From: Escherichia coli
Lineage (GTDB): Bacteria; Pseudomonadota; Gammaproteobacteria; Enterobacterales; Enterobacteriaceae
Length of the DNA stretch: 64,000 nucleotides
Reading direction: 5' to 3' (one strand)
NCBI RefSeq assembly: GCF_030384885.1
Contig: NZ_CP128613.1
The notes under the pieces were generated by a model that worked only from the letters and a program-made list of their open reading frames with translations, did not search any database and was not told the origin of the DNA. Each line of letters starts with the position of its first letter. Positions within the stretch are counted from its first letter, which is position 1. The translations under genes were made by a program, and so were the position numbers. Positions 3,280 to 46,599 of this stretch are shown one piece after another.

Positions 3280-4236
3280 ATGCGACAAAATTGCGCACAA
3301 TCAAATTGCCGCATTATTCCTAAGAAATTACGCGATATGAAACGTGAAGAGATTTGCCGCTTGCTGGCGGGTAAAGTTAATAAACTGAAAAATAAAGAAA
3401 ATAGTTTATCAGAGCTATTGCCCGATGTGCGTTTGTTGTATGGCGAGACGCCTTTCGCACGTACGCCGGTGATGTACGAGCCTGGCATCATAATTCTCTT
3501 TTCTGGGCATAAAATCGGTTATATCAATGAACGCGTGTTTCGTTATGATGCAAATGAATATCTGCTGCTGACGGTGCCGTTGCCGTTTGAGTGCGAAACT
3601 TATGCCACGTCAGAGGTACCGCTGGCAGGGTTGCGTCTCAATGTCGATGTTTTGCAGTTACAAGAGCTGTTGATGGACATTGGCGAAGATGAGCATTTTC
3701 GGCCGTCGATGGCAGCCAGCGGGATTAACTCTGCCACGTTATCAGAAGAGATTTTATGTGCGGCGGAGCGGTTACTCGATGTGATGGAGCGACCGCTGGA
3801 TGCGCGTATTCTCGGCAAACAGATCATCCGCGAAATTCTGTACTACGTGCTGACCGGACCTTGCGGTGGCGCGTTACTGGCGCTGGTCAGCCGTCAGACT
3901 CACTTCAGCCTGATTAGTCGTGTGCTGAAACGAATTGAGAATAAATACACCGAAAACCTGAGCGTCGAGCAACTGGCGGCAGAAGCCAACATGAGCGTAT
4001 CGGCGTTCCACCATAATTTTAAGTCTGTCACTAGCACCTCGCCGTTGCAGTATTTGAAGAATTACCGTCTGCATAAGGCGCGGATGATGATTATCCACGA
4101 CGGCATGAAGGCCAGTGCAGCAGCGATGCGCGTCGGCTACGAAAGCGCGTCGCAATTTAGCCGTGAGTTTAAACGTTACTTTGGTGTGACACCGGGGGAG
4201 GATGCGGCAAGAATGCGGGCGATGCAGGGGAGTTAA
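3280..4236 (+). CDS. yqhC: AraC-family transcriptional activator of yqhD-dkgA
   Basis: Track ORF 3109..4236; start chosen at in-frame MRQNCAQ (318 aa, matching remembered YqhC length); C-terminal AraC HTH. Confidence 0.85.
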
Positions 4237-21724: not shown

Positions 21725-21730
21725 TAGATG

Positions 21731-21768
21731 TTGTAGCAACCCCGTACTGATTATGAAGAATAATCAGT
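21731..21768 (+). terminator. hairpin downstream of gss (terminator candidate)
   Basis: ccccgtactgattat ... ataatcagtgcgggg inverted repeat immediately after gss stop; weak U-tract. Confidence 0.5.
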
Positions 21769-22015
21769 GCGGGGATTAATCAAAATATTCAATATTTATA
21801 TATTTCAATGTCTATTCATTTTATATGTGAATATATTAACCAGCAGAATACCTGTGTTCTAATTATTTTTAAATATTTTGAATGAATGCTTATTGTCTGA
21901 TACACAAGAAATAACACTCTTTTTATCGTTAAAAGATGATATTTCACTTTGCCCACGCCGTGAAAGTCACTGATAATGCGTCCGTTCGTAAATTCAAAAT
22001 GGCGTAATCTAATAT

Positions 22016-23515
22016 ATGCTAAATTTATTTGTTGGCCTTGATATATACACAGGGCTTTTGTTATTACTTGCTCTGGCATTTGTGTTGTTCTACGAAGCAA
22101 TCAATGGTTTTCATGACACGGCGAATGCGGTGGCAACCGTTATTTATACTCGTGCCATGCAGCCACAGCTTGCCGTGGTGATGGCGGCATTTTTTAACTT
22201 TTTTGGCGTATTGCTAGGCGGACTTAGCGTTGCCTATGCCATTGTCCATATGTTGCCAACCGATTTGTTGCTGAATATGGGGTCAACTCACGGCCTGGCG
22301 ATGGTCTTTTCCATGCTGCTGGCGGCGATTATCTGGAACCTGGGAACGTGGTTCTTTGGTTTACCGGCCTCCAGTTCGCATACCTTGATTGGTGCGATTA
22401 TCGGCATCGGTTTAACCAACGCGCTGTTAACCGGCTCATCGGTGATGGATGCGTTAAACCTGCGTGAAGTGACCAAAATTTTCTCCTCGCTGATTGTTTC
22501 CCCTATCGTCGGCCTGGTCATTGCGGGAGGCCTGATATTCCTGCTGCGCCGCTACTGGAGCGGGACGAAAAAGCGTGACCGTATTCACCGCATTCCGGAA
22601 GATCGCAAAAAGAAAAAAGGCAAACGTAAGCCACCATTCTGGACGCGTATTGCGCTGATTGTTTCCGCTGCGGGCGTGGCGTTTTCGCACGGCGCGAACG
22701 ACGGGCAGAAAGGGATCGGACTGGTGATGCTGGTACTGGTGGGGATTGCTCCTGCTGGTTTCGTCGTCAATATGAATGCGTCCGGCTATGAAATTACCCG
22801 TACCCGCGATGCCGTCACCAACTTTGAACACTATCTGCAACAGCATCCTGAACTGCCGCAGAAGTTGATTGCGATGGAACCTCCATTGCCTGCGGCATCG
22901 ACTGATGGCACGCAAGTAACGGAGTTTCATTGTCATCCGGCAAATACCTTTGATGCGATTGCGCGCGTTAAAACGATGTTGCCAGGTAATATGGAAAGCT
23001 ACGAGCCGTTAAGCGTGAGTCAGCGCAGCCAGCTGCGCCGCATTATGCTGTGCATCTCTGATACCTCTGCGAAGCTGGCGAAACTGCCAGGCGTCAGTAA
23101 AGAAGATCAGAACCTGCTGAAAAAACTGCGCAGCGATATGTTAAGCACCATTGAGTACGCTCCGGTGTGGATCATCATGGCGGTAGCACTGGCGCTCGGC
23201 ATTGGCACCATGATTGGCTGGCGTCGTGTAGCGATGACCATCGGTGAGAAGATTGGTAAGCGCGGCATGACGTATGCGCAAGGCATGGCGGCACAAATGA
23301 CGGCGGCAGTGTCTATCGGCCTTGCCAGTTATATTGGGATGCCCGTCTCCACAACGCACGTCCTCTCGTCTGCGGTAGCAGGGACGATGGTGGTGGACGG
23401 CGGTGGGTTACAGCGTAAAACGGTAACCAGCATCCTGATGGCGTGGGTGTTTACTTTACCGGCGGCGATTTTTCTGTCTGGTGGGTTGTACTGGATAGCA
23501 TTGCAGTTGATTTAA
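22016..23515 (+). CDS. pitB: low-affinity inorganic phosphate transporter
   Basis: Track ORF 499 aa [39 protein letters not shown]... Confidence 0.95.
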
Positions 23516-24256: not shown

Positions 24257-24429
24257 GAATATATCCTTAAATTTAAATATCCATCAAAAATATTTATTTG
24301 GTTAATATGTTTTTATGAAAGCGTAATTCAGGTCAATGTCACAATTAACCATTGTCACAATAAGGTTGAACGGATATTCTGAGCACGGACCACGTAATAT
24401 TCAATACATTATTTTCTGCCGGGTTTTTC

Positions 24430-28752: not shown

Positions 28753-29823
28753 ATGAAGCTGGTTGAACACTACATCATGCGTGGTACTCGCCGTCTGGTG
28801 CTGATTATCGTCGGTTTTCTGATCTTTATTTTCGCCAGCTACTCCGCACAGCGTTATCTGACCGAAGCGGCAAATGGGACATTAGCTCTTGATGTTGTGC
28901 TGGATATTGTTTTCTACAAGGTGCTGATTGCACTGGAGATGTTGTTACCTGTTGGACTGTATGTGTCAGTTGGCGTGACGCTAGGGCAGATGTATACCGA
29001 CTCGGAAATTACCGCTATTTCTGCGGCGGGGGGGAGTCCGGGACGCTTGTACAAAGCCGTTCTTTATCTGGCGATACCGCTAAGTATTTTTGTCACCCTT
29101 CTGTCGATGTATGGTCGTCCGTGGGCTTATGCGCAGATTTATCAACTGGAGCAACAGTCGCAGTCGGAGCTGGATGTTCGCCAGTTGCGGGCAAAGAAAT
29201 TTAACACTAACGATAACGGACGAATGATCCTTTCGCAGACGGTTGATCAGGATAATAATCGCCTGACTGACGTGCTGATTTATACTTCTACTGCCAATCG
29301 AACCCGTATTTTCCGCGCCCGTTCGGTTGATGTAGTTGACCCATCACCCGAGAAACCGACCGTTATGTTGCATAACGGGACCGCCTATCTTCTCGATCAT
29401 CAGGGACGTGACGACAACGAACAGATCTACCGTAATCTGCAATTGCATCTGAATCCGCTGGATCAAAGCCCTAACGTCAAACGCAAAGCAAAATCGGTCA
29501 CGGAGCTGGCGCGCTCCGCCTTTCCTGCCGATCATGCCGAACTGCAATGGCGACAAAGCCGTGGCCTGACAGCATTGTTGATGGCGCTGCTGGCCATTTC
29601 ATTAAGTCGGGTAAAACCGCGGCAAGGGCGATTTTCAACGTTATTGCCACTGACGTTGCTGTTTGTTGCCATTTTTTATGGCGGCGACGTCTGCCGTACG
29701 CTGGTGGCTAACGGCGCGATTCCCCTCATTCCTGGTTTGTGGTTAGTACCCGGACTCATGCTAATGGGCCTGCTGATGCTGGTCGCACGCGACTTCTCTT
29801 TGCTGCAGAAATTTTCCCGATGA
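28753..29823 (+). CDS. LptF-like permease (YjgP/YjgQ family), paralog of core lptF
   Basis: Track ORF 356 aa; N-terminal TM bundle, conserved YTDSEITAISAAG segment resembling LptF LYTESEITVMHACG, large periplasmic insert, C-terminal TMs. Confidence 0.8.
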   Translation: MKLVEHYIMRGTRRLVLIIVGFLIFIFASYSAQRYLTEAANGTLALDVVLDIVFYKVLIALEMLLPVGLYVSVGVTLGQMYTDSEITAISAAGGSPGRLYKAVLYLAIPLSIFVTLLSMYGRPWAYAQIYQLEQQSQSELDVRQLRAKKFNTNDNGRMILSQTVDQDNNRLTDVLIYTSTANRTRIFRARSVDVVDPSPEKPTVMLHNGTAYLLDHQGRDDNEQIYRNLQLHLNPLDQSPNVKRKAKSVTELARSAFPADHAELQWRQSRGLTALLMALLAISLSRVKPRQGRFSTLLPLTLLFVAIFYGGDVCRTLVANGAIPLIPGLWLVPGLMLMGLLMLVARDFSLLQKFSR

Positions 29824-30933: not shown

Positions 30934-32106
30934 TTACTGCTTCAGAGTAGCAAATGCCTGAATGATGGCATCGATTTGCTCACGAGTGTGGGCAGCGTTT
31001 ACGCTACAGCGCAGCAGCGTGATGCCTGCAGGCGCGGCAGGTGGCAGGATAAGATTCACATAAACGCCCAGCGAAATAAGCTCGCGCCAGATGCGTAAAC
31101 CTTCCTCTTTCGAACCGATTATCACTGGCACTACCGGGCTAATATGTGAACTTAACTCGTAACCCAGTTTTTGCAGACCGTCATACAGATGGTTGGCGTT
31201 ATCCATCAGCTTTTGCCGCAACTCTGGTTGTGAGGCAATGGTTCTTAACGACGAGCGCACGGTCGCAATGCAGGACGGAGAAGGAGAGGCGGTAAAAATA
31301 TACGGGCGGCTGCCGTAGCGCAGCACTTCCATCGCTTCCGAACCGACAGCAAAACCGCCAATCGAGGCCAGACTTTTACTGAAAGTACCAACGATAATAT
31401 CCACATCATCTTCAACGCCAACGGCTTCAGCCAGTCCGCGCCCCGTTGCGCCTAACACGCCAAACGAATGCGCTTCATCGACAATCAAATAACCACCGAG
31501 ACGACGTTTGATATCAACAATTTCCGCCAGCGGCGCAATGTCACCGAGCATACTGTAGATGCCTTCAACGATGATAATCGCCTCTTTTGCCCGTTCACCG
31601 AGGCGAACCATGCGCCGTTCCAGATCTTTAGCATCGTTATGGCGGAAACGAATAATTTCCGCTCCACCGAGAGAACAGGCGTCATAAATACTGGCGTGGC
31701 TGTCGGCATCCAGTAACACTACGGCGTTATGGTCGGCAAGTGCGCTGATGACACCTAAATTAGCGGTATAACCGGTTGAAAAAACGATAGCGGTAGGGCG
31801 ATTGAAAAACTCGGCAATTTCTTTCTCTAACGCCAGATGTGGCGCATAGCTGCCATTAGCCATACGAGAACCGGTAGTGCCGGTGCCTTGGGCCGCTAAC
31901 GCTGCCTGACCTTCGGCGATGGCATCATGATTGAAGGTTAAACCGAGATAATTATTGGTCCCGGCCAGGATCACGTTTTTATCGCCGATCCGGCCTTCGG
32001 TGGCGGAATACACTTCATCAATACAGGTACCAAACGGCGTTAACCCGTTGTCACTAAATTGCAGTCGCTCGCCAGCAAGGCGCGCATATTTATCGTATAG
32101 CCCCAT
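30934..32106 (-). CDS. PLP-dependent alpha-oxoamine synthase, serine palmitoyltransferase-like (third AOS paralog besides bioF and kbl)
   Basis: Track ORF 390 aa; PLP-lysine motif IVGTFSKSLASIGG, DEAHSFG motif, glycine-rich GTGTTGSR segment; TAATG overlap with upstream ACP. Confidence 0.85.
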   Translation of the reverse strand: MGLYDKYARLAGERLQFSDNGLTPFGTCIDEVYSATEGRIGDKNVILAGTNNYLGLTFNHDAIAEGQAALAAQGTGTTGSRMANGSYAPHLALEKEIAEFFNRPTAIVFSTGYTANLGVISALADHNAVVLLDADSHASIYDACSLGGAEIIRFRHNDAKDLERRMVRLGERAKEAIIIVEGIYSMLGDIAPLAEIVDIKRRLGGYLIVDEAHSFGVLGATGRGLAEAVGVEDDVDIIVGTFSKSLASIGGFAVGSEAMEVLRYGSRPYIFTASPSPSCIATVRSSLRTIASQPELRQKLMDNANHLYDGLQKLGYELSSHISPVVPVIIGSKEEGLRIWRELISLGVYVNLILPPAAPAGITLLRCSVNAAHTREQIDAIIQAFATLKQ

Positions 32107-32354
32107 TATTTATTCTCCAGCCATGGAAGTAGAGTTTCCATTAATTGCGCAGGGGTTTTGACATCCAGCAGAATATTAATAGGAATGGAAATATCGAATC
32201 TGTCTTCCAGCATCATTAAGAGATCCATCACTTTGATCGACTCCAGGCCAAGATCGTTGACGAGATCGCTGTCGGGCTTAATTTCCACACCGTTTTCGAC
32301 CAAATCCTGTAAACAGGAAAGGATGTAATCCATTACTATTTCACGATTTACCAT
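32106..32354 (-). CDS. acyl carrier protein (dedicated), candidate phosphopantetheine site in DLGLESIKVMDL
   Basis: Track ORF 82 aa; acidic four-helix ACP-like sequence; position between reductase and AOS. Confidence 0.7.
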   Translation of the reverse strand: MVNREIVMDYILSCLQDLVENGVEIKPDSDLVNDLGLESIKVMDLLMMLEDRFDISIPINILLDVKTPAQLMETLLPWLENK

Positions 32355-32385
32355 AGAAACGTTAACACACCTTTAAACAAGACAA

Positions 32386-33300
32386 TCAAAATAGCCCGTT
32401 GCGTAATGCGTGTTCCAGGCTAATCCCGGGAAACCAATTAATATCTTCAGAAATACGGTTATTACTTGCTGACCAGTCGGTGTGGGTTAATTCACGGATT
32501 TTCGAGCGGGTCAGCATAGGTTCTTTACCTGCCAGGCGACTCAACGCGGTACTGATATCCGCAAGGCAGGTGAGTACCGACAGAGGAATACCAACCATTC
32601 GAACGGAACCGCAACGGGCGTCGGCGGCAAGTTGCTGTACGCGTTGCCAGTCATAGCCGCCGGCGACGCCATCGCATAATTCATAGGTTTGCGTCTGTAC
32701 AGTTTCGGCGCTTAACCACTGCCCCACGGCTTGCGCGAAATCGGTGACGTGCAGGAAAGAGAGCTGTGTATCTGGCGCACCAAGTCGTGGCAGCAGGCCG
32801 CGCAGCATCCAGTCAAACAGCGGTTTTAACTCTTTATCGCCGGGACCATACACGGCTGTCGGGCGAAAAATGCCCAGCGTAATTTCGTCAGCCATTGCGG
32901 TCAGTCGTTGTTCGGCGACGTGTTTGGAATTTGCGTACCAGGAGAGTTCGGGATGGCGCGCCGCCAGCGAAGAGATAAACAGAAAACGTTGGCAAAAGCC
33001 GCTCTCTTTTGCCGCTTGCATCAGGCGCAGGCTGCCGTCAACGTTACAGCGGGTAAAAATCTCTTCTTTGTGTCCGCGCACTTGCCCGGCGCAATGGACC
33101 ACCGCGCTGGCTCCGGCAACCAGTTCGCTAAGCGAATGTGTATCTTCCAGCGAACCGCGCACCCAGATGAGATTATCATTGACGTGAGCGCGGGCAGTAC
33201 GCGTCAATGCGCGAACGTGAAAGCCGCGGGCGAGCAGGTTATCGATAATATATTTACCGATAAACCCGGTAGCGCCCGTCACCGCGACAGTTTGATTCAT
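32386..33300 (-). CDS. NAD(P)-dependent reductase of the epimerase/dehydratase SDR type (candidate 3-keto-sphinganine/ceramide reductase)
   Basis: Track ORF 304 aa; N-terminal VAVTGATGFIGKY Rossmann motif, YANSK (YxxxK); ATGA overlap with upstream FAAL. Confidence 0.8.
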   Translation of the reverse strand: MNQTVAVTGATGFIGKYIIDNLLARGFHVRALTRTARAHVNDNLIWVRGSLEDTHSLSELVAGASAVVHCAGQVRGHKEEIFTRCNVDGSLRLMQAAKESGFCQRFLFISSLAARHPELSWYANSKHVAEQRLTAMADEITLGIFRPTAVYGPGDKELKPLFDWMLRGLLPRLGAPDTQLSFLHVTDFAQAVGQWLSAETVQTQTYELCDGVAGGYDWQRVQQLAADARCGSVRMVGIPLSVLTCLADISTALSRLAGKEPMLTRSKIRELTHTDWSASNNRISEDINWFPGISLEHALRNGLF

Positions 33301-35015
33301 GCCATTGATTCCTGCACATGAAGGCTTGCAGCATAACGTTTTTTCGCTTCCGCACGGGCAGGCTTGCCGGAGGACGTTCGGGGAATACTGTGGGGCGGCA
33401 ACAGATCGATAGCCGCTGTTACGCCAAATTCGCTTTGGATCCGTGCTGCCAGTGCGTGGATAAGCTGCCCACGACGTTCTTCGTCGCTGATCCTACACTG
33501 GATCTGCAAAATGATTTTTTCCTGGGCGGTAACAAAAGCAATCGCATCGCCAGAATGAATTTCCGGTTCCTGTTCCGCAATATATTCAATATCCTGCGGC
33601 CAGATATTACGGCCACGAATAATAATCAGATCTTTAATGCGCCCGGTGACATACAGATAACCGTCCAGCAGATAACCGAGGTCGCCGGTATCTAACCAGC
33701 CCGTCGCGGCAATCTCGTCTTGCGAAACCTGGTCGCCAAAGTAACCGCTCATCAGGCTGGGGCCGGAGATGCAAATATGGCCTACCACACGTTCCGCGAC
33801 TGGCATACCTGCTTCATTGCGGATTTCAATGCCATGTTCCGGCAACGCTTTACCGCAGTTGACGAAAGTCGATACGGCGCGTGTTTCAGCACCCGGCGTG
33901 ACGGCTTTGCCCTGATATTCAAGAATGTCGCGATCCACTTCGTTAACCACAACCCCGGAGGCTTCATCAGAGAAGCTGACAGCCAGCGCATTTTCTGCCA
34001 GTCCGTAGCACGGCATGAAAGTTTTATCGTCAAAGTTAACCTGACGGAAACATTCAGCGAATTGATGGAGTTGTTCTGCGGAGATCGGCTCAGCACCAAT
34101 ACCAGCAACGCGCCAGCAGGAAAGATCCAGTTCAGCGAGATCTTTTTCATTCACGCGGCGCTGGCACAATTCATAGCCAAACGGCGGCGCAACGGAAACG
34201 GTGCCGCGATTTTTACTGATCAATTTAAGCCATTGCAGAGGACGCATGGCAAAATCCTGAGTGCGCAAATAATCTACTGAGAGCTGCGTGGCGACGGGGG
34301 TCAGGAGAAAGCCGACCAGTCCCATATCATGGTAGAAAGGCAGCCAGGAGACGCAGCGGTCGCCAGGGCGTAATTTAATGCCATCGTGGCTTATAGCACG
34401 TAGATTAGCCATCACTTCGCGATGGGTGATAATGACGCCACGGGGAAAACGGGTGCTGCCGGAGGTGTACTGGAGGTAGGCGATATCGTTCGGAACTGGA
34501 CGCTGGAGTACAACATCGGCTTCCGGTAATGCCTTAAACCAGGCGTGGCTTAAAACATGTAATTCGGGGTTGTTATGCGTAGCAGCATTGACCAGTGGCA
34601 ACCACTCATCACCAGTGATAATGGCTGCGGGCTGGCAACTTGCCAGTAGACCCTGCAGTTTGGCGCTCCAGGAATCCCGCTGACCGACGCCCATTGGAAT
34701 TGCCAACGGGACGGCGACTAAGCCGGCATACTGGCAGGCAAAAAAAGCCTCTACAAACCCGCTACTCGTTTCGGCAATCAGCGCCACGCGATCGCCTTTT
34801 TTCAGATTCAGTGATAACAACCGCTTCGCACCAGCTTCGGCACGCGCTTTTAACGTCTGATATTCCAGTTGATCTTCAAGTTGGCAACGTCTGTCATAAA
34901 AATTCATTCCGGCGCTACTCAGAGCGGCGTAGTCCAAAGCATCAACCAGCGTTGGAAAATCGGCATAGCGCATAGGTAGGGAATGCGTAAAGATGTTATT
35001 AGACATATACACCAC
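33297..35015 (-). CDS. fatty acyl-AMP ligase / acyl-ACP synthetase (adenylate-forming); start at GTG 35015 or ATG ~35006
   Basis: Track ORF 572 aa; AMP-binding signature YTSGSTRFPRGV, second motif TGDLGY; first gene of the minus-strand operon. Confidence 0.85.
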   Translation of the reverse strand: MVYMSNNIFTHSLPMRYADFPTLVDALDYAALSSAGMNFYDRRCQLEDQLEYQTLKARAEAGAKRLLSLNLKKGDRVALIAETSSGFVEAFFACQYAGLVAVPLAIPMGVGQRDSWSAKLQGLLASCQPAAIITGDEWLPLVNAATHNNPELHVLSHAWFKALPEADVVLQRPVPNDIAYLQYTSGSTRFPRGVIITHREVMANLRAISHDGIKLRPGDRCVSWLPFYHDMGLVGFLLTPVATQLSVDYLRTQDFAMRPLQWLKLISKNRGTVSVAPPFGYELCQRRVNEKDLAELDLSCWRVAGIGAEPISAEQLHQFAECFRQVNFDDKTFMPCYGLAENALAVSFSDEASGVVVNEVDRDILEYQGKAVTPGAETRAVSTFVNCGKALPEHGIEIRNEAGMPVAERVVGHICISGPSLMSGYFGDQVSQDEIAATGWLDTGDLGYLLDGYLYVTGRIKDLIIIRGRNIWPQDIEYIAEQEPEIHSGDAIAFVTAQEKIILQIQCRISDEERRGQLIHALAARIQSEFGVTAAIDLLPPHSIPRTSSGKPARAEAKKRYAASLHVQESMA

Positions 35016-35377
35016 GAAAAAAATTGGATATCAGAAATAAAATGACAATAATGCGGTGGATTATATAGGCATAAAAGATAAATGAGATAGTATTTTCATC
35101 GGTGCGATATTGAACATTGATTTAAATAATAGGTTTGGCTTTGTTGTTTTTATTGTGAATGATATTTAATTTATGAATATATTAAGAAGAAGCCTTGTTT
35201 GGTTGCCTTAAATCGACAAAAGGCATTGAGGCGCTTCTGTGTAGTCTCTGACCTTATCTTAATTATTAATAAATACTATTTATTCTTTGTTTGTATTCAT
35301 TGGGTTGATTATTAAGATGCCGTTCGTTGCTGTTGCAATCTGTTTGTCACCGTTAATTATTTGTTATCCACAGAGAT
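35016..35377. promoter_or_regulatory. AT-rich divergent promoter region between the FAAL operon (-) and yghO (+)
   Basis: ~360 bp strongly AT-rich with A/T tracts; flanked by divergent start codons; typical of H-NS-bound, horizontally acquired regulatory regions. Confidence 0.5.
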
Positions 35378-36520
35378 ATGGAATGCGATCTGCTGATGAT
35401 TAAAATTGAAAAAGTAATTAATAAAAATGACATTAAGGCATTTATCGCTTTTCCGTCATCACTTTATCCCGATGATCCAAACTGGATACCCCCTTTGTTC
35501 ATTGAACGCAGCGAGCATTTGTCGGCGAAGAATCCGGGGACGGACCATATTATCTGGCAGGCGTGGGTAGCAAAAAAAGCGGGGCAGATAGTCGGGCGGA
35601 TTACCGCGCAAATCGATACCTTGCACCGCGAGCGTTACGGTGACGATACCGGTCATTTTGGCATGATTGACGCCATTGATGATCCGCAGGTTTTTGCCGC
35701 TTTGTTTGGCGCAGCGGAAGCATGGTTGAAGTTACAAGGTGCCAGTATGATCAGCGGGCCTTTCAGCCTGAATATCAATCAGGAAAGCGGATTACTGATT
35801 GAAGGTTTCGACACTCCGCCCTGTGCGATGATGCCGCACGGTAAACCGTGGTATGCCGCGCATATTGAACAATTGGGTTATCACAAAGGTATTGATTTAC
35901 TGGCGTGGTGGATGCAACGAACCGATCTCACTTTCTCTCCGGCGCTAAAAAAACTGATGGATCAGGTACGCAAAAAGGTGACCATTCGTTGCATCAATCG
36001 TCAGCGGTTTGCTGAAGAGATGCAGATCCTGCGTGAGATTTTCAACTCTGGCTGGCAGCACAACTGGGGATTTGTGCCGTTTACCGAACATGAATTCGCT
36101 ACCATGGGCGATCAACTAAAGTATCTGGTACCGGACGATATGATCTACGTCGCTGAGATTGGTTCTGCACCCTGCGCGTTTATTGTCGGCTTGCCGAACA
36201 TCAACGAGGCGATTGCCGATCTGAACGGATCGCTCTTTCCCTTCGGCTGGGCAAAATTGCTGTGGCGCTTAAAAGTCAGCGGTGTGCGAACTGCGCGAGT
36301 GCCGCTGATGGGCGTGCGTGACGAGTATCAGTTCAGCCGCATCGGCCCGGTGATTGCGCTGTTATTGATTGAAGCCTTACGCGATCCGTTTGCTCGCCGG
36401 AAGATCGATGCGCTGGAAATGTCATGGATCCTCGAAACCAATACAGGCATGAATAACATGCTGGAACGCATTGGAGCGGAGCCGTACAAGCGTTACCGAT
36501 TGTATGAAAAGCAGATTTAA
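35378..36520 (+). CDS. yghO: YghO, full-length; candidate N-acyltransferase (GNAT/FemAB-like fold suspected, not verified)
   Basis: Track ORF 380 aa MECDLLMIKIEKVINKNDIKAF...; position between the lipid operon and glcC. Confidence 0.75.
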   Translation: MECDLLMIKIEKVINKNDIKAFIAFPSSLYPDDPNWIPPLFIERSEHLSAKNPGTDHIIWQAWVAKKAGQIVGRITAQIDTLHRERYGDDTGHFGMIDAIDDPQVFAALFGAAEAWLKLQGASMISGPFSLNINQESGLLIEGFDTPPCAMMPHGKPWYAAHIEQLGYHKGIDLLAWWMQRTDLTFSPALKKLMDQVRKKVTIRCINRQRFAEEMQILREIFNSGWQHNWGFVPFTEHEFATMGDQLKYLVPDDMIYVAEIGSAPCAFIVGLPNINEAIADLNGSLFPFGWAKLLWRLKVSGVRTARVPLMGVRDEYQFSRIGPVIALLLIEALRDPFARRKIDALEMSWILETNTGMNNMLERIGAEPYKRYRLYEKQI

Positions 36521-36658
36521 TACCAGATCCCATTAAGCGCACGGACGGTCATTCGGGAGAGTGTATAGATGAACAGATTTAACATCAGATCCTATTAAGC
36601 GCAGGGGCGGTCCCCTCGCCCCTCAGGGAGAGGGTTAGGGTGAGGGGGAAAACTCGGC

Positions 36659-46105: not shown

Positions 46106-46107
46106 AT

Positions 46108-46140
46108 CAATAAAGCCGGATGATCGTTAATATCATCCGG
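46108..46140 (+). terminator. rho-independent terminator of glcA
   Basis: gccggatgat cgttaat atcatccggc followed by ttcattctttg. Confidence 0.7.
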
Positions 46141-46599
46141 CTTCATTCTTTGTTCATTACATTATTCTGTCTTATTAATTTAAAATCATTTCCTGCTTTA
46201 TTATCTATACAGTAATAATGTATTGCATTCAGATAACATACTAAATAATTAAGGGTGTGAGAATATCTGTTTTTTTATCACGCAAAACAAGTCTGTATTA
46301 ATTATGTTCGCTTGATGAGCAAACACCGTTCTATCTGTTGCTTTTGCAATCTAAATCGTTAAAACTATCAACGAATTTATATGGTTACGCTGTGAAAAGT
46401 TGTTGATTTTTTGTTTGTTGAAATTTCGTAAAAATAACCTGGCAGATATCGTATAGGGGATATTCTTATAGATTTCACCTGTTTTTCTATAAATGATGCC
46501 GTTTTCTTAAGAATGGAGGAAGTTATTAGAGAAAATAAAGCATAAAACTATTTTCCCAGTTACAAATTCTTTAATTTTATTTTGTCACTTGCGTTATTA

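Follow-up and report, generated by a model that had tools for sequence, protein, structure and literature searches.

What decides whether Escherichia coli expresses its genes for ceramide synthesis, and when? The question centers on a short piece of DNA within the 64,000-nucleotide stretch of E. coli contig NZ_CP128613.1 (assembly GCF_030384885.1) analyzed here, hereafter the window. In it, a minus-strand operon and the plus-strand gene yghO are divergently oriented, and the 371 bp that separate them (35007-35377) are strikingly rich in A and T. A first annotation of this DNA, hereafter the original prediction, described the segment as a divergent control region between yghO and a fatty acyl-AMP ligase (FAAL) operon, typical of H-NS sites and silenced under laboratory conditions. 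The operon is real, but it was not recognized as a known locus: it corresponds to aasR-cerR-acpR-spt, the sphingolipid operon already described in E. coli. Because the operon has this identity and the product of yghO is predicted to be the ceramide synthase, the two sets of ceramide synthesis genes share the region as their divergent control region, and whether the pathway is expressed must be decided there. We assign a probability of roughly 0.55 to the reading that 35007-35377 is a divergent regulatory region combining weak promoters, silencing by H-NS/StpA, and a conserved, factor-dependent block. Weak promoters, likeness to H-NS-bound DNA elsewhere in the locus, and a constrained block of 115 bp together make the idea of H-NS silencing concrete, and the block, contrasted with the element found in other Enterobacterales, provides a handle on when E. 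coli makes sphingolipids.

Two-part conservation of the intergenic region

The main new result of the analysis is a two-part pattern of conservation, which the original prediction had not seen. The window was aligned with four further Escherichia lineages drawn from cryptic-clade isolates, E. whittamii and divergent E. coli, giving five lineages in total. Across them, only 6 of the 115 sites adjoining aasR (35007-35121, with a core at 35007-35100) are variable. By comparison, 339 of 915 third-codon positions of aasR and yghO vary (37%; Fisher p = 2e-14 against the block), as do 115 of the 257 alignment columns in the rest of the intergenic region (45%; p = 3e-16). Sliding nucleotide diversity (pi) stays at 0.02-0.03 from ~34922 to 35121, compared with ~0.09 for coding sequence and 0.14-0.39 over the remainder of the region. 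Low diversity thus crosses the aasR start into its codons, back to ~34922. The same picture emerges from seven other E. coli genomes analyzed independently, with 4 of 94 sites variable in the block versus 56 of 284 outside it.

The remaining 256 bp (35122-35377; G+C 0.305) form a fast-evolving, A+T-rich spacer adjoining yghO that changes at or above the synonymous rate, yet block and spacer have the same base composition. Judged from these alignments, 35007-35121 is under strong purifying selection, whereas the other two thirds keep their composition only. The constraint on the block does not reflect AasR-coding sequence, because the reading frame of aasR meets a TGA 26 nt ahead of its ATG at 35006 and an A-run is 1 nt shorter in most strains.

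The most economical reading of the block is that of a weak, factor-dependent aasR promoter on the minus strand with its operator and leader. Under such a model, the conserved 115 bp would most likely contain an aasR promoter with a perfect -10 element but no usable -35, the 5' leader, and one or more sites for a sequence-specific factor. The aasR and yghO promoters would both be intrinsically weak, and the surrounding tract, from ~34975 to ~35500, would by its composition be a likely binding site for H-NS/StpA. Binding of H-NS there, combined with its presence at acpR and the yghT-yghS promoter region, would leave the locus all but silent in laboratory culture until a factor acting at the conserved block relieved that silence.

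Composition and boundaries

The strong A+T-richness that had been claimed for 35016-35377 is borne out. G+C content is 0.298 over that interval and 0.302 over 35007-35377 (69.8% A+T), against 0.515 for the whole window (48.5% A+T), 0.525 for aasR and 0.497 for yghO. Windowed G+C content, the check originally proposed, shows that only 0.49% of all 371-bp segments in the 64 kb are equally G+C-poor; the A+T-rich composition is therefore real and beyond chance fluctuation. The three A/T strings quoted as examples are all present, aaatgacaataatg at 35040, tttaaataatagg at 35121 and ttaattattaataaatactatttattc at 35259, and the longest run of A and T only within the intergenic region is 17 bp. The TpA dinucleotide occurs at a frequency of 0.103, or 2.3 times the window average of 0.044. 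As a sequence feature, an A+T-rich divergent promoter region is nevertheless commonplace. The window has 21 intergenic regions of 50 bp or longer. Four of them, gss-pitB, yghT-yghS, aasR-yghO and glcA-sslE, have a G+C content of 0.29-0.30, and the others range from 0.36 to 0.58. The first two and the last of the four lie at 21726-22016, 24257-24429 and 46106-46599 (each 29-30% G+C), and the glcA-sslE region is located upstream of sslE and the type II secretion genes.

The divergent arrangement was confirmed from the RefSeq annotation of NZ_CP027579.1 (E. coli 2013C-4282), which is 100% identical to the window over 34000-36600. It places a minus-strand operon of fatty acyl-AMP ligase, NAD-dependent epimerase/dehydratase, acyl carrier protein and serine palmitoyltransferase genes on one side and yghO, divergent and on the plus strand, on the other. 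Nothing coding lies between the two opposed transcription units, and the region holds no conserved open reading frame (ORF). The originally predicted boundaries hold as an approximate position but require adjustment at both ends. Candidate starts for aasR are the ATG at 35006, the GTG at 35015 that appears in the ORF list, and the equivalent of 34973 used by the Prokaryotic Genome Annotation Pipeline (PGAP) in many other strains; in the identical strain, PGAP uses 35006. The ATG at 35006 is most likely the start, rather than the GTG at 35015, because the AasR N-terminus obtained with the ATG shows conservation across 10 genera. For yghO, the annotated start is 35378, and an alternative at 35396 (M7), which would lengthen the intergenic region to 389 bp, corresponds to the start in other genera. 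There, the start sits behind a TAAGG Shine-Dalgarno sequence. Escherichia has lost this TAAGG, which makes initiation of yghO translation look weak in E. coli. The A+T-rich tract itself extends beyond the intergenic limits on both sides, from ~34975 to ~35500.

Promoter content and expression in culture

The region lacks a strong promoter. A first scan found 1 sigma-70 promoter-like site where 2.9 would be expected, and a weight-matrix search returned a best sigma-70 score of 7.85, compared with a mean best score of 10.1 in shuffled sequences. The best candidate for the aasR side is a perfect -10-like hexamer, TATAAT, on the minus strand at 35060-35065, inside the conserved block. Its score is not above that of the shuffles, and the -35 with which it would pair across a 17-bp spacer is poor (ATCTCA). 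Transcription from this putative promoter would start at ~35053 and give a leader of ~47 nt. Searches of the region with sigma-E and sigma-54 consensus sequences gave no match, and direct and inverted repeats amount to short A+T-rich matches at chance expectation.

The expectation that the locus is silent under laboratory conditions agrees in large part with published work in BL21(DE3). Extracts of BL21(DE3) carrying empty vectors show no serine palmitoyltransferase (SPT) activity, and no 3-oxo-sphinganine-like compound is seen on thin-layer chromatography (PMC9386255). Spt overexpressed alone in this host likewise yields no product; plasmid-borne aasR and acpR are needed as well (PMC9386255). 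Because chromosomal AasR and AcpR do not complement plasmid-borne Spt, the native operon is effectively off in BL21(DE3) in complex/rich medium at 30 degrees C. Our search of the literature found no report of E. coli making sphingolipids from the native locus. It also returned nothing on regulation of the locus or of the aasR-yghO intergenic region, and searches by locus tag (c3711-c3716 and ECD_02850-54) returned nothing on regulation either.

Probable H-NS/StpA binding

H-NS binds DNA by composition, and A+T-rich, TpA-rich DNA is favored. The aasR-yghO region belongs to the A+T-rich divergent promoter regions of accessory loci, a class that H-NS typically binds. Promoter regions bound by H-NS/StpA in K-12, SE11 and SE15, such as that of ybdO, are likewise a few hundred bp long, ~70% A+T and TpA-rich (Higashi et al. 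2016, PMC4720273). Both belong to accessory loci, the sphingolipid locus being absent from K-12. The ybdO-type regions differ in that aasR and yghO are themselves not A+T-rich and are outside the set of genes called bound in CFT073. H-NS-bound intergenic regions are also more diverse than others, with a median of 0.019 versus 0.006 (Higashi et al. 2016, PMC4720273). Most of the aasR-yghO region shows similarly high diversity, but one third of it is nearly invariant, unlike the bound regions of that study.

Chromatin immunoprecipitation (ChIP) data from CFT073, the kind of public resource that had been suggested as a check, bear directly on the locus. ChIP-seq in this strain, whose intergenic region is 93% identical to that of the window, found c3714, yghS and yghT bound by both H-NS and StpA (PMC9765446). 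The first of these is acpR, as c3714 is the sole unnamed 249-nt gene in that CFT073 interval and encodes an identical protein. The H-NS signal at c3714 is lost in an hns deletion, whereas yghS and yghT remain bound there, and neither cerR nor spt is called H-NS-bound (PMC9765446). The aasR-yghO region equals the yghT-yghS intergenic region in A+T and TpA content (0.70 and 0.105 in the latter) and exceeds acpR, which is 59% A+T. The yghT-yghS region (24257-24429) is likewise divergent and likewise heads an operon of the sphingolipid locus, in its case the second, concerned with transport/modification. At 173 bp it has half the length, and the genes on either side of it are called H-NS/StpA-bound in CFT073, unlike aasR and yghO. 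A test for co-regulation of the two regions revealed no common motif beyond chance. From composition and these neighboring binding data, we consider that H-NS/StpA probably occupies 35007-35377 in vivo; that H-NS is also the main cause of the silence of the locus is a less probable proposition.

Other regulatory resources are of limited use here. O157:H7 Sakai lacks the whole locus and K-12 lacks the region, and consequently K-12/RegulonDB and enterohemorrhagic E. coli (EHEC) regulatory data are uninformative. The H-NS supplements for SE11/SE15 and H10407 do not mention the locus, and the literature search returned no hns or hns stpA derepression data for aasR or yghO. In K-12-like strains (THB42-F5), an IS5 element and a deletion endpoint are located at the equivalent of window position 35418, within the A+T-rich 5' end of yghO. 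This would fit the description of H-NS-bound DNA as a transposition hotspot (PMC11335895).

Several observations weigh against silencing by H-NS. Firstly, silence may be incomplete. BL21 that makes 3-oxo-sphinganine from plasmids also yields compounds with the mobility of sphinganine and ceramide, and the authors suggest chromosomal ECD_02852 (cerR) and yghO as their source (PMC9386255). Chromosomal cerR and yghO acting on a plasmid-made precursor would imply some basal expression. Secondly, our searches found no published transcription start sites for aasR or yghO. Thirdly, aasR and yghO are absent from the list of H-NS-bound genes in CFT073, although scoring there was per gene and intergenic DNA fell outside it (PMC9765446). 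We regard this absence as weak negative evidence because, by a rough scaling from yghS and yghT, binding of the region would bring yghO (1.1 kb) only to the borderline and leave aasR under the threshold. The high-affinity H-NS nucleation motif TCGATAAATT, which supports H-NS binding where it occurs but does not strictly define it, has a best match in the region with 2 mismatches, and 75% of shuffles are as good; the motif is not enriched. A+T-rich gene bodies, the mark of a horizontally acquired, coated island, are also missing. The flanking genes have ordinary E. coli G+C content, and therefore no multi-kilobase H-NS filament is expected. Finally, composition alone is weak evidence for H-NS because 4 of the 21 intergenic regions share it, and the A+T-richness of the spacer could be maintained passively, as considered below.

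Comparison across genera

A YghO-based scan, with one genome per species, recovered the divergent aasR/yghO pair in 10 genera: the Escherichia clades, Shimwellia, Citrobacter amalonaticus, Pluralibacter, Pseudocitrobacter, Serratia, Klebsiella indica, Cedecea, Hafnia, and a Pseudomonas metagenome-assembled genome (MAG). The intergenic region measures 270-806 bp and lies 15-25 G+C points below the flanking genes in every genus. The long versions, in Serratia, K. indica, Shimwellia and Pluralibacter, contain no plausible ORF or regulator gene. Footprinting anchored on E. coli 14-mers against the nine other genera found nothing beyond shuffles except the aasR ribosome-binding region.

A different element is shared outside Escherichia. 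The 16-mer GCATTAAGTGGTAAAA occurs as a single copy in the aasR-yghO region of seven non-Escherichia genera, far better than in shuffles, with 0-2 mismatches in five of them and 4 in Cedecea. In the three genera measured, it lies 120-330 bp upstream of yghO. Sites include positions 3887-3899, 3677-3689 and 3700-3712 of the extracted loci L015, L018 and L025, with equivalents in L014, L016, L028 and L030. The element is absent from the window and E. coli, from Pseudocitrobacter and from the Pseudomonas MAG. The regions of C. amalonaticus, Serratia, K. indica, Shimwellia, Pluralibacter, Hafnia and Cedecea resemble that of E. coli in position, orientation and G+C deficit. These seven Enterobacterales carry GCATTAAGTGGTAAAA, while E. 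coli has its own conserved block instead. Possibly, the 16-mer is a promoter or operator element that was replaced in Escherichia. A tentative extension of this idea, which we hold to be possible though not probable, is that the block at 35007-35121 serves as an Escherichia-specific docking site for a dedicated activator or counter-silencer responding to a host or envelope signal, in place of GCATTAAGTGGTAAAA.

Two further hits came from the scan. Shimwellia pseudoproteus has, besides the canonical divergent pair, a further yghO paralogue (73% identity), and the 4-kb flanks of this second copy gave no aasR homologue. The other hit, part of a YghO with 97% identity to that of E. coli, comes from a Gram-positive assembly (a 430-bp contig labeled Macrococcus sp. 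DPC7161) and is almost certainly contamination.

Alternative explanations

The alternative that survives best, which we regard as possible but doubtful, is that the composition is passive. The A+T-rich spacer would then be at mutational equilibrium, sequence-specific factors would act at the block or at the yghO start, the promoters would be weak or activator-dependent, and H-NS would be unimportant. Substitution patterns in the spacer are consistent with this. Singleton substitutions from GC to AT amount to 0.25 per G/C site and those from AT to GC to 0.079 per A/T site, implying an equilibrium G+C of ~0.24, close to the observed 0.30; however, the counts are small (19 versus 13) and crudely polarized. 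The rapid evolution of the spacer, the lack of an E. coli footprint common to other genera beyond shuffles, the position of aasR and yghO outside the CFT073 bound set and the unenriched H-NS motif all point the same way. A neutral origin, however, is no bar to H-NS, which binds by composition, and the less A+T-rich acpR is H-NS-bound in CFT073. Furthermore, the long A+T-rich spacer has been kept in all 10 genera and has never collapsed to a short intergenic region.

A second alternative places the region under a global regulator, such as ArcA (repressing at low oxygen) or Fis, IHF or Lrp, with H-NS secondary. We scanned 18 transcription-factor consensus strings, each scored against shuffles. 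One stood out, an ArcA-box-like direct repeat on the plus strand, GTTAATTATTTGTTA (35352-35366), just upstream of the yghO start, in which GTTA is repeated 11 bp apart. It has 2 mismatches to the 15-bp ArcA box consensus, 1% of shuffles are as good, and it is invariant across the seven E. coli genomes. With 18 motifs tried, though, a single match at the 1% level is near expectation. The repeat is not significantly conserved across genera, no other motif of the panel was notable, and the conserved aasR-side block would be left unexplained. We therefore treat GTTAATTATTTGTTA as a possible ArcA site in the sense of a lead only, and governance by a global regulator as unlikely.

The weakest alternative is that the block encodes a structured 5' leader or riboswitch, a small RNA or a leader peptide controlling the operon after initiation, as its stronger-than-coding conservation across the aasR start might suggest, but this is very improbable given that an Rfam search of 34700-35700 on both strands gave 0 matches at E-values up to 1, that folding of the presumed aasR leader is not significant against shuffles (z-scores -0.37 and -0.62), that substitutions are too few for covariation, and that no small ORF in the region is conserved across strains. 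Three such ORFs were considered and rejected. One of 18 codons inside the block (35117-35061, minus strand), found by eye as it falls under the 20-amino-acid listing cut-off, differs at 4 residues in BL21-type strains. A plus-strand ORF of 20 codons, also in the block, is broken in most strains by the 1-nt change in the A-run, and a 28-codon ORF overlapping the yghO start shows exclusively non-synonymous changes plus an indel.

Distribution and possible decay in E. coli

The intergenic region is widespread: of 5426 complete E. coli genomes, 4132-4167 contain it, with 93-96% identity to the window. About three quarters of the complete genomes have the entire complement of ceramide synthesis genes, with BL21, CFT073 and many pathogenic lineages among them. 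About 400 complete genomes retain yghO without the intergenic region (4566 versus 4167). In K-12-like strains, ~8 kb are deleted, from the 3' end of yghQ to around codon 13 of yghO, including the ceramide operon and the intergenic region. In three of six other E. coli examined (CUVET20-PYO2, O145:H28 RM13514 and 723_010814_2_1), yghO is annotated as a pseudogene, through a frameshift or internal stop, and aasR is intact. These cases suggest decay of the pathway in several lineages. At 3,875,536-3,876,852 of the Sakai genome, a truncated pitB borders on the prophage-like element SpLE3 (inserted at pheV), with no glc genes, yghO or sphingolipid locus at that position.

Genes of the locus

The operon begins with aasR (33297-35006, minus strand), which encodes the acyl-AcpR synthetase and matches NCBIfam NF006624 with 873 bits against a cut-off of 600. 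It is followed on the same strand by cerR/epi (32386-33300), a reductase of the NAD-dependent epimerase/dehydratase family assigned from RefSeq, then by acpR (32106-32354), a specialized acyl carrier protein likewise assigned from RefSeq, and finally by spt (30934-32106), the serine palmitoyltransferase, which is of the proteobacterial type (NCBIfam NF047599; 599.9 bits, cut-off 500). Thus, acpR lies directly upstream of spt, and genes for the acyl-ACP synthetase, reductase and N-acyltransferase are all in the locus. The last of these, yghO (aca/cerS/bCerS; 35378-36520, plus strand), is a predicted N-acyltransferase. Because YghO has no Pfam or NCBIfam match, its role was assigned through its orthology to Caulobacter CC_1154 (PMC9386255). 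The BL21(DE3) orthologues are ECD_02850 (yghO, as aca/cerS), ECD_02851 (aasR), ECD_02852 (epi/cerR), ECD_02853 (acpR) and ECD_02854 (spt), and AasR, AcpR and Spt have been biochemically characterized (PMC9386255). In G+C content, cerR (0.549) and spt (0.517) resemble the two genes that flank the intergenic region, and only acpR is low (0.406). It forms a second, milder A+T-rich trough inside the operon (32050-32500).

The same five genes, aasR, cerR, acpR, spt and cerS/aca, make up the ceramide clusters of Caulobacter crescentus and of other alpha-, beta- and gamma-proteobacteria (PMC9386255, PMC11324152). Paralogues of lptF/lptG lie near those clusters, as they do in E. coli, where they and a yghQ-type flippase just upstream are part of the locus (bioRxiv 10.64898/2026.04.12.717747). 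Divergence of aasR and yghO around an A+T-rich spacer, in contrast, is an Enterobacterales feature that sets the locus apart from Caulobacter-type clusters. In the window, the lptF paralogue (28753-29823) is intact at 356 codons, whereas RefSeq lists it as frameshifted in NZ_CP027579.1. The gene has a run of 7 G at ~29025-29031 compared with 6 in that genome, a change that offsets the coordinates of the two sequences by 1 upstream of the run and is probably a homopolymer sequencing difference.

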